The position numbers and the translations under genes are program-made. The notes beneath the pieces are model-generated. The model searched no databases and was not told where the DNA came from. It saw only the letters and a list, made by a program, of their open reading frames with translations. A stretch of 64,000 bases of DNA from Nitrospinaceae bacterium. GTDB lineage: Bacteria > Nitrospinota > Nitrospinia > Nitrospinales > Nitrospinaceae. The first letter of the stretch is position 1. Each line of letters begins with the position of its first letter. Shown here one piece after another: positions 13,212 to 19,410 of the stretch. The DNA is taken from NCBI GenBank assembly GCA_965237905.1, contig OZ250172.1:2272001-2336000 (forward strand), in the 5' to 3' direction.

Positions 13212-14183
13212 TTAGTCGCAACAGGAATCATCGTTCGAGGGTGTTTCATCGGGATCGATGATATTGAACATCTCCCGATAGGGATGAGATTCGAGCAAGC
13301 TTGCGAAATCCTCATCCACTTCCACGGGAACGCCCATGGGAAACTGGATGTTCTGAAAAGTGGCCGCATGCAAGGGGCCGGCATAAATCGCCTGCACCTT
13401 TCCGGGACAACAGGATTGTTCAACGGGTACGGGTTTGTAGGCGGTCAGGATATAGGAATAGAACCGGATGCCCTCGACGGTTTTCCACAAGTAATCCTTT
13501 TTCAGGGTGAAGCCGTGGAAATCGGTCTGTTTCGAATAGTTAATGAACTCATCGAGAGTCAGCGCGCCGGAGACGCATTCGCCCCACAATTCGCGGTTGT
13601 TGCGCATTTCCTGCGGAACCGGTTTGTCCGAAATGATATCGGCGATGACGAATCGGCCGCCGGGTTTCAGGATTCGGTGAATTTCGCGGAAGACTTCTTC
13701 CTTGTCGGTGGACAGATTGATAACGCAGTTGGAAGTGACCACATCCACGGACTGATCGTCCATGGGAATGGCTTCCAGAAAACCGTGTTTGAATTCGATA
13801 TTGTTGTACCCCAGGTTTTTGGAAACCTGTTCGGCGTTTTTGCGGGCATTGGCGAGCATATTCTCCGTCATATCCACGCCGGTGACCTTGCCCTTCGGTC
13901 CCACAATTTTTGCGGCGATGAAACAGTCGATGCCGCCGCCGGAGCCGAGGTCTATCATGGATTCGCCGGGAGCGATGTTGGCCCGGTTCACGGGACTGCC
14001 GCATCCGTAGGAAATGTCCATCACCTCGGAAGGAATATGCGAAAGGTCACCGGGATCGTAATTGACCGGGCAACACAAACTTTCCTGGGTAGCGACCGCC
14101 GCCTTGGAATAATAATCGCGGACGTCGTTGCGGGTGACTTCAGAACACGTTTCGGTTTCAGTACCGGCTCTCCTGTCATTCAT
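13212..14183 (-). CDS. arsM: arsenite S-adenosylmethionine methyltransferase-like protein
   Basis: LCC, YGCGSP, DLGSGGGIDCF, GVDMT, SNCVINL, WGECVSGA; GAAAGGA SD before ATG 14183. Confidence 0.8.
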   Translation of the reverse strand: MNDRRAGTETETCSEVTRNDVRDYYSKAAVATQESLCCPVNYDPGDLSHIPSEVMDISYGCGSPVNRANIAPGESMIDLGSGGGIDCFIAAKIVGPKGKVTGVDMTENMLANARKNAEQVSKNLGYNNIEFKHGFLEAIPMDDQSVDVVTSNCVINLSTDKEEVFREIHRILKPGGRFVIADIISDKPVPQEMRNNRELWGECVSGALTLDEFINYSKQTDFHGFTLKKDYLWKTVEGIRFYSYILTAYKPVPVEQSCCPGKVQAIYAGPLHAATFQNIQFPMGVPVEVDEDFASLLESHPYREMFNIIDPDETPSNDDSCCD

Positions 14184-14214
14184 CTGAACATTCCTTTCCA
14201 ATTATATAAATTCA

Positions 14215-14520
14215 TCAACTTGATTGTTTAAGGGAATCTTTGATTTTGGTTTTAGCTTGCTCGCTGAGGACCTCCTGCTGTTGCGTCGGTGCTTCCTCCC
14301 TTCCCAGTTTCCGGGCGAGTGCGCGGATGGTTTCCAGTTGTTTTTTATAAAAGCAACAAACGTCGCAAATGGCAAGATGAAATTTGAGCCGCAGGCGTTT
14401 GCCTAAAGGTAGGGAGCGATCCATCGTCTCCGAAATGAGGGGCGTGGTGTCCCTACACGTCATTTGGAACCATTGGAGCAGCCGCCCCATGAATTTTACC
14501 ATTATAGAGTTTGATTTCAT
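14215..14520 (-). CDS. zinc-binding anti-sigma factor (zf-HC2)
   Basis: MTC...HLAICDVC (HxxxCxxC); TAATG overlap with the sigma gene. Confidence 0.85.
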   Translation of the reverse strand: MKSNSIMVKFMGRLLQWFQMTCRDTTPLISETMDRSLPLGKRLRLKFHLAICDVCCFYKKQLETIRALARKLGREEAPTQQQEVLSEQAKTKIKDSLKQSS

Positions 14521-15095
14521 TACTGCTTCGTATCCCAATGACTCGTTTCCAGGCATTTACGGAGTTGGTTCCGGGCCCGGTGTAAAATCACCCACAAATT
14601 GGTCGGGTTGATATCCATTTCCTTACAAATTTCCTCGGAGGCCAACCCTTCTATCTCCTTTAAAACAAATATGTTACGGAATTTATCTGACAATTTGTCC
14701 AGGCATTGAGCCATGGCTTCCACAAGTTGCTTGTTTTCAGCCGCTTTGTGGGGATCAGTATCCCAGTTTTTGGGAGCGTTTTCCCAATGTCCGTCTTGGT
14801 GGTAAGCGTTTTCCAAGGGATCGGATCCGTCGTCCGGTGTCAGCTCAAACGTTCTCCGGGTTTTCAATTCCCTGAAATGGTCCAGGATTTTATGTTTCAA
14901 AATGCCGAACAACCAGCTTTTTTCCGTAGATCTTCCCTGGAAAGAGCCTTTGGCCTGCAGAGCAGCGAGCAGGGTCACTTGTACGATCTCCTCGGCGGCA
15001 TCAGGATTTTTCACCCGGACCAGAGTGTATCGATACAGCATATCACCGTATCGGTCCACCCACAAATCGCTATTCAGAGTTTCCGGCATTTTCAC
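14520..15095 (-). CDS. ECF RNA polymerase sigma factor
   Basis: AAEEIVQVTL, FQGRSTEKSWLFGILKHK (region 2); EGLASEEIC..LWVILHRAR (region 4). Confidence 0.92.
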   Translation of the reverse strand: MKMPETLNSDLWVDRYGDMLYRYTLVRVKNPDAAEEIVQVTLLAALQAKGSFQGRSTEKSWLFGILKHKILDHFRELKTRRTFELTPDDGSDPLENAYHQDGHWENAPKNWDTDPHKAAENKQLVEAMAQCLDKLSDKFRNIFVLKEIEGLASEEICKEMDINPTNLWVILHRARNQLRKCLETSHWDTKQ

Positions 15096-15122
15096 GATAA
15101 TCCCACTCTAAGATTGCTGTTG

Positions 15123-15152
15123 TTGACTTCCACCTCTCGAAGCTCATATACT
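15123..15152 (+). promoter_or_regulatory. sigma70-type promoter, probably giving a leaderless arsR transcript
   Basis: TTGACT-18-TATACT; ATG follows 7 nt after the -10 box. Confidence 0.55.
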
Positions 15153-15159
15153 GGCTTCC

Positions 15160-15558
15160 ATGAACCAGACACCCGATGCAGGGCAATGCGCCAAAATACT
15201 AAAATCACTGGCCGATGAGTCGCGCTTGAAAATCGTCCGCCTTTTGCTGAACGGAGAAAAAAGCGTTTCCGAAGTGGTCCGCTCCCTCCGCATGGCTCAG
15301 CCACAGGTCTCGCATCACCTTTCGATTTTGAGGGGTTCCGGGTTGGTGGATACCCGAAGAGAGGGTAAAAAAATCATCAACTTCATTGATCCGGAAGTTA
15401 AATATATTCTAAAAAAGAAAGAAATCGGTCTGGATCTGGGATGTTGTTCCATCCAATTTGACGAAACTCCGAACCCCCCCCACTTCCTGAAGTTGTCAAG
15501 CACCACCCCTCCTCAAGATATAGCTTCGGCATTATACCTATTTCGACGATCCAATTAA
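15160..15558 (+). CDS. ArsR/SmtB family transcriptional regulator
   Basis: LKSLADESRLKIV, VSHHLSILR, GLVDTRREG; C-terminal GCC. Confidence 0.9.
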   Translation: MNQTPDAGQCAKILKSLADESRLKIVRLLLNGEKSVSEVVRSLRMAQPQVSHHLSILRGSGLVDTRREGKKIINFIDPEVKYILKKKEIGLDLGCCSIQFDETPNPPHFLKLSSTTPPQDIASALYLFRRSN

Positions 15559-18500
15559 AAGGACTTATTTGAAGGGGTTTGTGCCAAGTGGGAGGGGTAC
15601 AGATTTTTATAAATTCCGTGGTTTCGAAACACGTGTTTGACGTAGCCCCGGGTTTCGGGATAGGGGATGGATTCGACAAAGACGTCCATATCCTTGATAC
15701 TGCGGAATCGTTTGAGCCAGGCCTGCAACACTTTTGGCCCGGCGTTGTAGGTGATCAGAATGTAAACGCCATTGCCTTTGTGTTTTCGGGTGAGATTGCT
15801 CAGATACCGGACGCCCAGGCGGATGTTGATATCCGGCTCGAACAGGAAATCCGTGTCAAAGGTTTGGTTCGGATGGGTCCATGCGAACAGGCGTTTGCCA
15901 GTCTTGGGCATGATCTGCATCAGACCCCGCGCTCCGGCGGGTGACAGGGACCTCGTGTTGTACATGCTTTCCTGTCGAATCAGGCTTTTCACCAACCAGG
16001 GGTCCAGATCGTACTTCCCAGCTTCAATTTTTACATACTCCGAGTAGACCGAAGGATAAAAGTTGATCCAAAATTGCCGGGGCAGTTCCTTCTCGCCATG
16101 TTTGGTTTTGAAATCCTTGAACAATTGAAGGACTTGCAGTGAGTCGGCATAGGCTTGCGCGCGATTGTACCAATGAGATAACCACATGACACCGGAAAGA
16201 TTTTTTCGAATGGATCTCCCCAATCTCAACAACTCGATCCGGGCCTGGGTGAATTCTCTCAGCTCGATCAGCTCGGATGCGCGTTTGAAATGAAATCTTT
16301 CTCTTGCAGACAAGCGACGCCCCGGTTGAGTAAAGGAGTGTTTCTTCTTATAGGAGGCTTTTCGGAAAGGCGAGAAGCCTTGCAAGGGTGTGGGGAATAC
16401 CTCATCCAAATGATTGATGGCCTCCAAGCCGTAATAGGTGTAGGGAAATCGATGGGCCAAATCCTTAAACAGGATCTGAGCTGCCGATGTTTTGTCCAGT
16501 TTTTCGGCCGCCTTGGCCATCCAGAATAAGTTTTTATCCGTGAGGTTGCCTTTAGGAGATTGGTCGAGGTTGTCTTTGAATTGATCGAAAGCTTTCTGCC
16601 ACTGTCCGGCTTTAAAATGAATCCACCCGCTTCTCCATGCCGCCATTTCCCCCTGCATTTCACGACCGAATTTCCGCGCCAGGATTCGGTACGTTCCGAG
16701 AGCTTTTGCGTGCTTTTGGATATCCTCATAAATGCGCCCCTGATAAAACAGGGGCTGTGGAACCCATCTGGAATTCGGGGATGTTTTTATAAGGGTGTTG
16801 ATGTGGCTCAAGGCTCCGGAGGGATTGCCCAGATTCCACAGGTTCCCCGCTATGAGAAAATGCGCTTCGCTGGTTCGGCGGTGTTTGGGATACTTTCTTA
16901 AAAACTGCCGCAGAACAATATTGGCTTTGGACCGTTTGCGAAGGCCTTTGTGAGCTTCCGCCAAATAAAAGTAAAGGTCAGCGGGGAGAGGTTTGCCCCT
17001 CAATTTTTTTTGGATCGCCTTGATCTCCTGGATCACCGGGGTGTAGTCGACACTATTCAACAACGCGCGCATGCGTCGTCGGGTTTCTCTTAGAGTAAGA
17101 GGGCGGGGAGTCAGGGAAAGTTCTTTGACCATTCGATCCATTTGAACTTTGGCCTGAAAGCGTGCCGCAACTTTGGGGTGACGAATATAAAGCTTACGGT
17201 ACAGATTGTATACTTGGTCATGATCCCTCAAAAGTTTGGACAGCTTGACTTGGTGGTTGATGATATCAGGAACCAGCACTTTCCATTTCCGGGTGGAGAA
17301 CTTCCGGGAGATCAGTTTTTCCGTCTGTCTCAATTCTTTAATAGCCTCTTGAAAATTTCCCAGTTTCTCATGCGCATCGGCGCGAAGCAGGCGGACCTCA
17401 GGAATCAAGAGGGTGAGCGGGTGCTTTTTTAAAAGACGGGTAGTTTGTTTCAACACCGCTTGCCATTCTTCTTCGGCCTGGTAGATGCGGGCCAGCTCAA
17501 GCCGGATGTAATCCCCCATTTCGGGATATTCCCAGAGAACATTTTTCAGTTGGGTTTTTGCCTGGTCATAATTCTCTTGATGGGCGTAAATTTTCCCGAG
17601 CATAAAGCGCGTGCGTTTTTGTGTTTTCGGGTCCACCCCGGTGAGAAGGAGTTTTTCAAACAGGCCCTGGGCCTCATCCCACCGGCCGGAATGATATTCG
17701 TGAACTCCGGATTGAAACCATCCTTCGTTGGAGGCAGAAGCAGGCGCGGGACCCCACAGGAAAAGCCAGCCGCACAACAGGAGTGTCGCTCCGAGCGGTA
17801 CCTGTGCCAGAACTTTTTCCTTGATCTGTTGCGCTGTTTCGCCGGGATCGAGGAGCAGAGTGATCCGGGCGGCCATTTTTCTGAACCAAGTCAATTGACG
17901 TTTGGCGAAATGGCGGGTGTCCCGTTTGATCTCATAGACCGCACGGTCCAGCGGCAGGTCGCTTTCCAGATGTCGCGCCATTTGGGAATAGCCGATGCTT
18001 TGAAACGGTTTCAATCGAGAGCCGTAACCCTTGTTCAATAAGGATTCGACTTCCTCTTTCAATCCTGCGTCCATCATGATATCCACCCGGCGCTCGATTT
18101 GGTCGTAGAGATGTTGACGATCGGTTTCCAGTACGAACAGGTACGATTCAAATTCGTAATCGGCTGAGGCCTCCTCGGCATGAAATTCGGAGAACTTCCG
18201 GCCCGTTTCACGGTGGACCGATAACGCGCGTTCGATTCGCGATGGATCGGTCGGCTGAATTTTCCCGGCATAGTCCGGATCGACACCTGCCAACTCTGCG
18301 TGCATCTTCTGCGTTCCTTTCTGCTGGATTTCATCCTGGACCTGGCGACGGATCTCTGGAGATACGGAAATGGCGCAATCTCGGTCTTCCAGCAGGGTTT
18401 TCAAATAGAGACCGGTGCCTCCGACCATGATCGGAATCTTGTTCCGGTTTCGGATCTCCCGGATTTGCGCCAATGCCCGTTCCTTAAACTCAAACGCTGT

Positions 18501-18713
18501 GAACTCCTCATCGGGTTCGAGAATATCAATCAGGTGATGGGTGACGCGCTCCCGCTCAGCCTGGGAGGGCTTGGCTGTCCCGATATCGAAATGCTTGTAG
18601 ACCTGCATGGAGTCGGCGCTGATAATTTCAGTGCCGAGATGCTCCGCCAGGGCTAGCGCAGTTTTACTTTTACCTGAGGCGGTGGGACCGCTCAGGATAA
18701 TTAAAGGAAGCAT
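15555..18713 (-). CDS. miaA: tRNA dimethylallyltransferase fused to TPR and lytic transglycosylase (SLT) domains
   Basis: GPTASGKS, DSMQVY, IGTAKP, VGGTGLY, FAKRQLTWFR; then a hydrophobic segment, TPRs, and SLT motifs IRQES, GLMQIMP, YNAGP, ETRGYV in one frame. Confidence 0.9.
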   Translation of the reverse strand: MLPLIILSGPTASGKSKTALALAEHLGTEIISADSMQVYKHFDIGTAKPSQAERERVTHHLIDILEPDEEFTAFEFKERALAQIREIRNRNKIPIMVGGTGLYLKTLLEDRDCAISVSPEIRRQVQDEIQQKGTQKMHAELAGVDPDYAGKIQPTDPSRIERALSVHRETGRKFSEFHAEEASADYEFESYLFVLETDRQHLYDQIERRVDIMMDAGLKEEVESLLNKGYGSRLKPFQSIGYSQMARHLESDLPLDRAVYEIKRDTRHFAKRQLTWFRKMAARITLLLDPGETAQQIKEKVLAQVPLGATLLLCGWLFLWGPAPASASNEGWFQSGVHEYHSGRWDEAQGLFEKLLLTGVDPKTQKRTRFMLGKIYAHQENYDQAKTQLKNVLWEYPEMGDYIRLELARIYQAEEEWQAVLKQTTRLLKKHPLTLLIPEVRLLRADAHEKLGNFQEAIKELRQTEKLISRKFSTRKWKVLVPDIINHQVKLSKLLRDHDQVYNLYRKLYIRHPKVAARFQAKVQMDRMVKELSLTPRPLTLRETRRRMRALLNSVDYTPVIQEIKAIQKKLRGKPLPADLYFYLAEAHKGLRKRSKANIVLRQFLRKYPKHRRTSEAHFLIAGNLWNLGNPSGALSHINTLIKTSPNSRWVPQPLFYQGRIYEDIQKHAKALGTYRILARKFGREMQGEMAAWRSGWIHFKAGQWQKAFDQFKDNLDQSPKGNLTDKNLFWMAKAAEKLDKTSAAQILFKDLAHRFPYTYYGLEAINHLDEVFPTPLQGFSPFRKASYKKKHSFTQPGRRLSARERFHFKRASELIELREFTQARIELLRLGRSIRKNLSGVMWLSHWYNRAQAYADSLQVLQLFKDFKTKHGEKELPRQFWINFYPSVYSEYVKIEAGKYDLDPWLVKSLIRQESMYNTRSLSPAGARGLMQIMPKTGKRLFAWTHPNQTFDTDFLFEPDINIRLGVRYLSNLTRKHKGNGVYILITYNAGPKVLQAWLKRFRSIKDMDVFVESIPYPETRGYVKHVFRNHGIYKNLYPSHLAQTPSNKSF

Positions 18714-19410
18714 AAATTTCCTGCATGGTTTGTGTGTAACTGCCATCGGGATGATAGATGGTCAATGTTTGCTCTAAAGGTGTTTGAGGAGCCTCCCCCT
18801 TGACCGCCTCCACGAGGCAGATTTTCGGAGCGACCTCTTCATGACCGAACACCCGGACAAACCGGGTCGGGTTCAACTGAACCTTCCGGAGTTGTTTCAT
18901 TACCTCTTCCAGCCGGTAGAAAGGATAGGCCAGTGCGATTTTGCCTCCCGGTTTTAACAGGGGGGCACCTACCGCGGTTACAGTCTCCAGCGTCAGGGCC
19001 AGCTCGTGCCGCGCCAGGGCTTTTTCCCGGCAGGGATTTATTTTACCGCTGTTCACTTTCCGGTAAGGCGGATTGCTCAGAATCCAATCGAACGATTCAG
19101 GTTCCAAATCGCTGGCGACGGCCTGGAAATCTCCTTCCACCACCCGGATGCGATGGGACCAACCGTTGGTTGCTACATTATCCATCGCGCTTTGGTACAG
19201 GGATTTTTGAATTTCGACGGCGGTGATTTCCAGATCCGCCTGGCGGCTCATCAGGAGCAGGGGAATGACGCCGCACCCGGTTCCGATATCCAGAATTCTG
19301 GACCCTCCGGCCGGTCGGACCCAGTGGGCGAGCAGAAACGGCTCCACCGAATACCGGTAGCCCTCTGGATTTTGACTGATAGTGATTTGCTCGGCGATCT
19401 GGTTTTCCAT
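18670..19410 (-). CDS. tRNA1(Val) (adenine37-N6)-methyltransferase family (YfiC/TrmN6-like)
   Basis: GYRYS, ILDIGTGCG, SNPPY, ARHE. Confidence 0.85.
   Translation of the reverse strand: MENQIAEQITISQNPEGYRYSVEPFLLAHWVRPAGGSRILDIGTGCGVIPLLLMSRQADLEITAVEIQKSLYQSAMDNVATNGWSHRIRVVEGDFQAVASDLEPESFDWILSNPPYRKVNSGKINPCREKALARHELALTLETVTAVGAPLLKPGGKIALAYPFYRLEEVMKQLRKVQLNPTRFVRVFGHEEVAPKICLVEAVKGEAPQTPLEQTLTIYHPDGSYTQTMQEIYASFNYPERSHRLR

Follow-up and report, generated by a model that had tools for sequence, protein, structure and literature searches.

A MiaA tRNA-modification enzyme fused through a signal-peptide-like linker to a lytic transglycosylase in Nitrospinales

A 64,000-nucleotide stretch of a Nitrospinaceae bacterium genome (contig OZ250172.1 of assembly GCA_965237905.1, positions 2,272,001 to 2,336,000; hereafter the window) carries a gene in which a complete MiaA, a tRNA-modifying enzyme, runs without a stop codon into a linker resembling a signal peptide, a tetratricopeptide repeat (TPR) region and a lytic transglycosylase domain of the SLT family. 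Comparison with related genomes confirmed that this fusion is real and old, and not an artefact. Judging from the sequences, we consider it probable that the product is a precursor that keeps MiaA in the cytoplasm, exports the hydrolase and is processed by signal peptidase I at what was formerly the signal peptide of a separate slt gene.

A fused reading frame conserved across Nitrospinales

A first-pass annotation of the window, made from its letters alone, had read positions 15555-18713 as one unbroken frame encoding a complete MiaA followed by TPRs and an SLT domain with its catalytic Glu, and profile searches bore out each of these points (Table 1). The MiaA family model TIGR00174 matches residues 4-287 with 303.3 bits (cut-off 148.65) and Pfam IPPT matches residues 37-279 (E 1.8e-85), and because residues 12-308 of the 316 residues of Escherichia coli MiaA align with residues 4-302 of the query, the MiaA part is essentially whole. 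The SLT match covers residues 893-1005 (E 1.7e-22; PF01464, 79.6 bits over a cut-off of 21.3), with TPR families in between, and the domain displays the catalytic Glu-Ser, GLMQ and YNAG motifs of its family.

Active-site columns are invariant in both halves of the fused loci. In the MiaA part, G9, T11, K15 and D34 occur in 55/55 rows and R209 in 57/57, while in the SLT part E915, S916, G930, M932, Q933, Y989-N-A-G992, E1020 and T1021 occur in 55/55 and the motif residue L931 in 54/55; we take these columns to hold the MiaA P-loop and catalytic Thr, Asp and Arg, and the catalytic positions of SLT, respectively. All 55 loci that reach the 5′ end have an ATG at the miaA start column. The genome itself (3.09 Mb in a single contig, 96% complete) yielded only one MiaA match, and it also encodes MiaB. 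The fused MiaA is predicted to form i6A37 on tRNA, from within a 1052-aa frame instead of the standalone soluble form of ~310 aa, which was seen only in other orders.

A protein search of 61 genomes, including the genome of the window, returned 56 loci that extend across the junction, each of them a single open frame with 38-86% identity to the query; four stops initially listed inside loci turned out to be ordinary C-terminal stops. In the remaining genomes, the locus is broken between contigs (G052) or neither the fused gene nor a miaA match was found (four genomes). A phylum-wide miaA search then covered 120 genomes, of which 102 belong to Nitrospinales and 18 to other orders of the class. 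Among the Nitrospinales, 96/102 have a miaA match and, by hand tally, 94 of these 96 read through the junction, either in frames of at least 1030 aa (77 genomes, some assigned by frame length alone) or in frames that a contig end truncates or, for G096, that are frameshifted within MiaA (17 genomes). The first-pass annotation had named a stop codon after MiaA in close relatives, or an indel or stop in reads at the junction, as findings that would speak against a fusion. Neither occurred, and a stop was seen at the junction in none of the 96 Nitrospinales genomes with a miaA match, two of which end before the junction. Homologues with a named source place the organism in Nitrospinaceae. The fusion spans four families of the order, and the same architecture is found in the cultured strains Nitrospina gracilis 3/211 (CCQ89187.1, 1059 aa) and N. 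watsonii (WP_282010411.1, 1056 aa).

Contigs of two public sequencing runs were likewise identical over the stretch, without a differing letter or indel, although they are no independent proof because they derive from a single sample that may be the very source of this DNA. Nothing was found in favour of an error in sequencing or assembly, or of a stop codon lost recently by chance, and both can practically be dismissed, since the junction stays open across the order at such divergent identities, in four families and in the records of cultured strains.

Two irregular loci were noted in these searches. In the 59%-complete genome G096 (locus L091, G096:C6:12995-13836), the frameshift lies around residues 123-136 of the MiaA part, leaves the junction intact and may be an assembly error. 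Genome G071, with 5% contamination, has two miaA matches (G071:C12:71445-72278 and G071:C39:34963-35802), each in a 1046-aa frame.

Beyond the order, no convergent MiaA-SLT fusion was detected among the best 150 representatives or the best 120 of 292 homologues, most of which are listed without a taxon, nor in a further 24 loci, 17 of which lack a full-length match and are standalone MiaAs in frames of 309-349 aa. Six matches of odd length were inspected, and P0189 proved to be a divergent fragment of the same MiaA-SLT fusion. Other architectures encountered were MiaA joined to a class I/II aminotransferase (P0263, 677 aa), MiaA joined to a GNAT domain (P0206, 452 aa), and a protein in which TPRs are combined with a pair of SLT domains and IPPT is absent (P0255, 1137 aa). 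No published description of a MiaA-SLT fusion was found in the literature searched, in which subscription journals were thinly covered, and the main texts of two Nitrospinota papers (PMC13768755, PMC10203281) mention neither miaA nor transglycosylase.

Table 1. Features of the fused gene and its upstream neighbour, in window coordinates
Feature	Position	Strand	Basis or remark
Fused open reading frame, MiaA + internal signal peptide (predicted) + TPR-SLT lytic transglycosylase	15555..18713	-	1052 aa, stop-free
MiaA domain, residues 1-305	17799..18713	-	Pfam/NCBIfam profiles, E. coli alignment, invariant active-site columns
MiaA P-loop	18666-18689	-	
MiaA end, residues 292-306, basic, predicted helix, n-region substitute, ending at conserved Pro306	17796..17840	-	helix predicted by homology
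Predicted h-region, residues 307-320, short hydrophobic core	17754..17795	-	TolB-like hydrophobicity
Predicted c-region, residues 321-327, containing Pro and A-S-A; A327 last before the putative signal peptidase I cut	17733..17753	-	
TPR superhelix region, residues 328-880, part of predicted periplasmic product	16074..17732	-	Pfam TPR families
SLT catalytic domain, residues 881-1040	15594..16073	-	profile and alignment
Catalytic Glu915 within IRQES (residues 912-916)	15969-15971	-	
Met280, the one common start codon lying in frame within the linker of this genome; candidate secondary start	17874..17876	-	
TrmN-like methyltransferase gene, upstream, 44-nt overlap with miaA start	18670..19410	-	NCBIfam match

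Some neighbouring genes were also recorded. The best NCBIfam match of the upstream gene is TrmN (E 1.3e-25), at 90.6 bits under a cut-off of 350, and its product and MiaA would presumably both act at A37; the order trmN-miaA-slt recurs in the ingroup and in several outgroup loci. Downstream, a cluster at 13212-15558 includes an ArsR-family regulator (Pfam; 15160-15558, plus strand) and, divergent from it, genes that by eye resemble an extracytoplasmic-function sigma factor, a small anti-sigma factor and a SAM-dependent methyltransferase.

Sister orders and the origin of the fusion

In the other orders of the class, 15/18 genomes have a miaA match, and all 15 carry a stop after MiaA. Ten of these 15 loci (families f7-f9) have a separate TPR-SLT gene downstream of miaA, and each of the ten slt products starts with a signal-like segment. 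The candidate slt ATG overlaps the miaA end (at -17, -8 or -1) in seven of the ten pairs, while in two the slt start lies ~13-130 nt downstream and in one a 773-nt insert intervenes. For the other five outgroup loci (f5 and f6), no slt homologue was found near miaA within the stretch fetched.

With the nine full-length adjacent slt products, the fused C-half scores 268-323 bits, compared to 162-200 bits for the second Slt paralogue of the genome, suggesting that the adjacent slt is the likely source of the fused C-half; the fused TPR region shares 27-31% identity with the separate slt products of the sister orders. The second paralogue itself (G000:C1:164943-166433, L031) is a standalone TPR-SLT gene in a frame of 827 aa with an N-terminal signal-like segment, and similar matches were found in many relatives. 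A quick maximum-likelihood tree was built from 56 MiaA domains, omitting one partial outgroup row. In it the 25 sampled MiaAs from fusions group together (SH-aLRT 99), as do nine MiaAs with an adjacent slt (97), indicating a single origin of the fusion from a pair of overlapping genes. Moreover, because standalone MiaAs end at a median of 40 residues past the K271 column, close to Pro306 at 36 residues past it, the joint of the fusion coincides with the usual MiaA terminus.

This state could have come about through an indel or a short deletion where the miaA stop and the slt start overlap, removing the stop, the slt start and the n-region of the slt signal, after which the basic last helix of MiaA would serve as a new n-region abutting the old h-region. 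In five f9 loci (L068, L069, L070, L074 and L076), tandem repeats of ~7 nt fill the slt n-region behind the miaA stop in variable number. Such repeats could provide the kind of indel that created the fusion.

Once fused, an slt without its own start would be silenced by any new stop after miaA, so that reversion would be hard. Because this ratchet alone can explain why the fusion did not revert, its retention needs no functional link between the halves. The coupling of tRNA modification to cell-wall remodelling put forward in the first-pass annotation accordingly found no support beyond co-translation: as miaA and slt are already overlapping neighbours in the sister orders, the fusion merely hard-wires an existing co-expression. 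Both the state before the event (two distinct, overlapping genes, slt having an ordinary signal peptide) and the state after it (94/96 genomes) are at hand, and the fusion can serve as a clade marker for Nitrospinales.

The linker as an export signal

The linker (residues ~299-330) contains the one strongly hydrophobic 19-mer of the protein (Kyte-Doolittle (KD) hydropathy 1.92, next best 0.82). To place it between cleaved signals and membrane anchors, it was calibrated against proteins from the same genomes, with 30 loci each of TolB and BamA, which carry cleaved signals, and of MltG and PBP2, which carry anchors, set beside 72 fusions. A small-x-Ala motif follows the hydrophobic core in 63/72 fusions, compared to 19/30 TolB, 15/30 BamA, 5/10 outgroup slt, 7/30 MltG and 0/30 PBP2 loci, and the stricter A-x-A in 27/72, 11/30, 7/30, 2/10, 1/30 and 0/30, respectively. 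The core has a median length of only 13 residues, Pro is present in the c-region of 51/72 fusions, and Trp and Tyr are scarce at the core end (mean 0.29, against 1.6 and 2.5 for the two anchors). An insertion-energy proxy gave medians of +0.25 for the fusion, +0.10 for TolB, -0.59 for BamA, -0.78 for outgroup slt, -0.81 for MltG and -1.66 for PBP2.

The n-side of the linker is basic, with K300 in 49/56 and P306 in 52/56 loci, two or three Lys/Arg in 52/56, and a net charge of at least +1 over columns 297-307 in 54/56. Column identity is lowest in the linker (0.40, compared to 0.70 for MiaA and 0.67 for SLT) and the h/c pattern is nevertheless kept; a segment that varies in its letters while keeping its pattern seems to behave as signal peptides do. 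The linker thus combines the features of a substrate of Sec and signal peptidase I (basic n-side, short h-region, polar or Pro-containing c-region, small residues at -3 and -1) with a position inside the chain instead of behind a start codon. Taken together, it looks signal-peptide-like, closer to the TolB and BamA signals than to the MltG and PBP2 anchors, in line with the internal export signal read in the first-pass annotation. Two other signal types were rejected: a lipobox-like word, as expected of a lipoprotein (signal peptidase II) signal, occurs in 14/56 loci, always at the start of the core and not at its end, and a twin-arginine (Tat) motif occurs in 0/56.

The first-pass annotation had left open whether this segment tethers MiaA to the membrane or is split by signal peptidase I. 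A permanent signal-anchor, giving an uncleaved bitopic protein with MiaA inside and the transglycosylase outside the inner membrane, would have a known layout, since a cytoplasmic domain of ~300 residues before a single membrane segment is familiar from proteins such as StkP/PknB, and these genomes also encode MltG, a lytic transglycosylase that is anchored; the hydropathy of the linker would also allow it. We nonetheless deem such an anchor unlikely, given the short core, the c-region rich in Pro, Gly and Ser, the frequent small-x-Ala, the paucity of Trp and Tyr at the core end and a hydrophobicity below that of the MltG and PBP2 anchors. Moreover, a cleavage site that is harmful to an anchored protein should have decayed over four families. 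Of the two fates, splitting by signal peptidase I therefore fits better than a permanent anchor. The two do not exclude each other, as MiaA would stay attached to the residual signal after the cut and be released only by a further protease.

The preferred reading, in which the precursor is split, would proceed as follows. The chain would enter Sec at the internal signal while MiaA stays in the cytoplasm, resulting in an N-in/C-out topology, and LepB would cut after A327 to free a TPR-SLT enzyme of ~725 aa into the periplasm. MiaA would then carry a hydrophobic tail of ~20 residues until its removal by RseP, or be active while weakly tethered. The genome encodes two LepB proteins and one RseP; the signal peptidase I genes scoring over the cut-off lie at G000:C1:2241728-2242270 and 1969209-1969688. 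It is further conceivable, if doubtful, that MiaA is freed only after LepB and then RseP have acted, in which case the state of secretion and of the envelope would gate i6A37 modification and, with it, the translation of UNN codons. If true, a virus-style polyprotein would be fixed in a whole order, with the sole MiaA made as a leader ahead of the wall hydrolase that is exported, and such gating of translation would operate in the ocean's main nitrite oxidisers.

A number of observations weigh against cleavage of one fused precursor. The genomes compared are related, so the conservation counts are not independent of one another, and small-x-Ala is missing from 9/72 linkers within the window tested. 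A logistic classifier called 71/72 fusions 'signal' but, with MltG held out, miscalled 16-20 of 30 MltG anchors, and some control segments were mis-anchored, for which reasons we give it little weight; the anchor reading profits from this poor separation. A weakly hydrophobic signal 300 residues into the chain is also an unusual Sec substrate. Finally, Met occupies column 280 in 39/56 fusions compared to 4/81 standalone MiaAs, all five genomes of genus g9 (L039-L043) have AGGA or GAGG ~10 nt before an in-frame ATG296, and, because words resembling a Shine-Dalgarno (SD) sequence precede only 143 of 462 likely starts (~31%) in this genome and 19/55 miaA starts, the lack of an SD says little against internal initiation.

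These last observations favour a nested start, in which the full chain would give MiaA and most of the transglycosylase would be made from the in-frame Met280 (or from Met296 in the one genus) with an ordinary signal, as does the AAA that precedes ATG280 in 36/39 loci, compared to 72% gene-wide. As the first-pass annotation had it, no SD plus start codon for a separate SLT gene is seen in the linker of this genome, in which Met280 is the sole in-frame ATG, GTG or TTG in residues 276-312 and stands without an SD-like word. Across the 56 loci, ATG280 is likewise never preceded by such a word and is replaced in 17/56 by Val, Ser, Ile or Gln codons, mostly GTT or GTC for Val as in outgroup MiaAs. 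Three of the 56 fusions have no ATG, GTG or TTG anywhere in 276-312, an SD-like word combined with any linker start occurs in just 8/56, at scattered positions, and no linker column holds a start codon conserved across the order. Synonymous variation does not dip at the junction either (0.37-0.42, against a mean of 0.44 with a standard deviation of 0.06), while it does at the true miaA start (0.29-0.32), a region that also overlaps the upstream gene. We draw no conclusion from a promoter scan, which returned nine weak sites versus 3.8 +/- 2.0 expected; none of them precedes the junction closely on the coding strand.

For the order as a whole, we therefore regard a nested start as rather improbable. 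A secondary start in some lineages is possible on these data, and ATG296 of genus g9, from which the SLT half would begin with an ordinary signal peptide at its N-terminus, is possibly a re-evolved internal start. Even with a nested start the cell must produce and process the fused chain, because MiaA has no stop of its own.

Another alternative, that the signal is a relic and the transglycosylase half remains cytoplasmic or dead, or that frameshifting frees MiaA, is highly improbable. The second TPR-SLT gene, with its own signal-like segment, could do the wall work in such a case, but the catalytic motifs of SLT do not vary (55/55 rows) and nearly all loci retain the h/c pattern. A programmed frameshift was rejected as well, as a slippery word of the form XXXYYYZ occurs in only 13/54 linkers and no nearby other-frame stop is conserved in comparison with control sites.

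Comparison with known systems

Each half of the fusion belongs to a known family. The MiaA half shares with standalone MiaA (TIGR00174; E. coli structures PDB 2ZM5 and 3FOZ) a near-full alignment, invariant P-loop and catalytic residues, its status as sole copy and the presence of MiaB, and differs in running without a stop into an export signal and a wall enzyme of 725 aa (both predicted). For the C-half, the relatives are Slt70 and family 1A (E. coli PDB 1QSA; Pseudomonas aeruginosa Slt): residues 886-1036 match Slt70 449-599, and by this offset E915 corresponds to E478, which we take to be the catalytic residue of Slt70. Helical repeats likewise precede the catalytic domain in Slt70, whereas the repeats of the fusion are of the TPR type and its signal is internal. 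The score for the Slt70 equivalog PRK11619 remained well below the threshold (95.5 versus 536 bits), as did that for the flagellar TPR-SLT protein BB0259 (NF047373; 135.8 versus 234 bits). A flagellum-specific role was rejected, as 13/61 genomes have no fliF match and the fusion is kept in three single-contig genomes among those without one (G024, G039 and G045), which argues that the enzyme is not purely flagellar.

Databases name the 1056-1059-aa proteins of the cultured strains after MiaA alone, with '(modular protein)' added for CCQ89187.1, and this systematic annotation miss hides a conserved peptidoglycan enzyme behind a MiaA label. If the chain is cleaved, a single gene of a marine nitrite-oxidising order would supply both sides of the inner membrane. 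There is hardly any documentation of bacterial genes whose internal signal, once cleaved, leaves one enzyme in the cytoplasm and another in the periplasm. The fusion makes two matters testable: whether a weak signal that lies 300 residues from the start of a chain can be handled by Sec and LepB, and whether a fusion is retained by ratchet rather than by function.

The FbcH cytochrome b/c1 precursor of Bradyrhizobium japonicum, reportedly described by Thony-Meyer, James and Hennecke in 1991, is said to give two proteins from one gene by way of an internal signal. The MiaA-SLT fusion likewise consists of one open reading frame with a (putative) internal signal, from which two proteins are predicted. 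The halves of FbcH, however, are subunits of one membrane complex, the first of them polytopic, whereas here a cytoplasmic tRNA enzyme is joined to a wall hydrolase from an unrelated pathway. The family of each half is known and FbcH is a one-gene-two-proteins precedent; it is the fusion itself that the literature searched does not describe.

A second parallel is found in RsiV of Bacillus subtilis and Clostridioides difficile. RsiV has a cytoplasmic N-terminal part and a membrane segment and is cut by type I signal peptidase at A-x-A or V-x-A, after which the site-2 protease RasP/RseP frees the cytoplasmic part; site-2 proteases are described there as clearing remnant signal peptides as well (PMC9044953). 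These cuts destroy RsiV, which acts as a regulated sensor, whereas the two products of the MiaA-SLT fusion would both be working enzymes.

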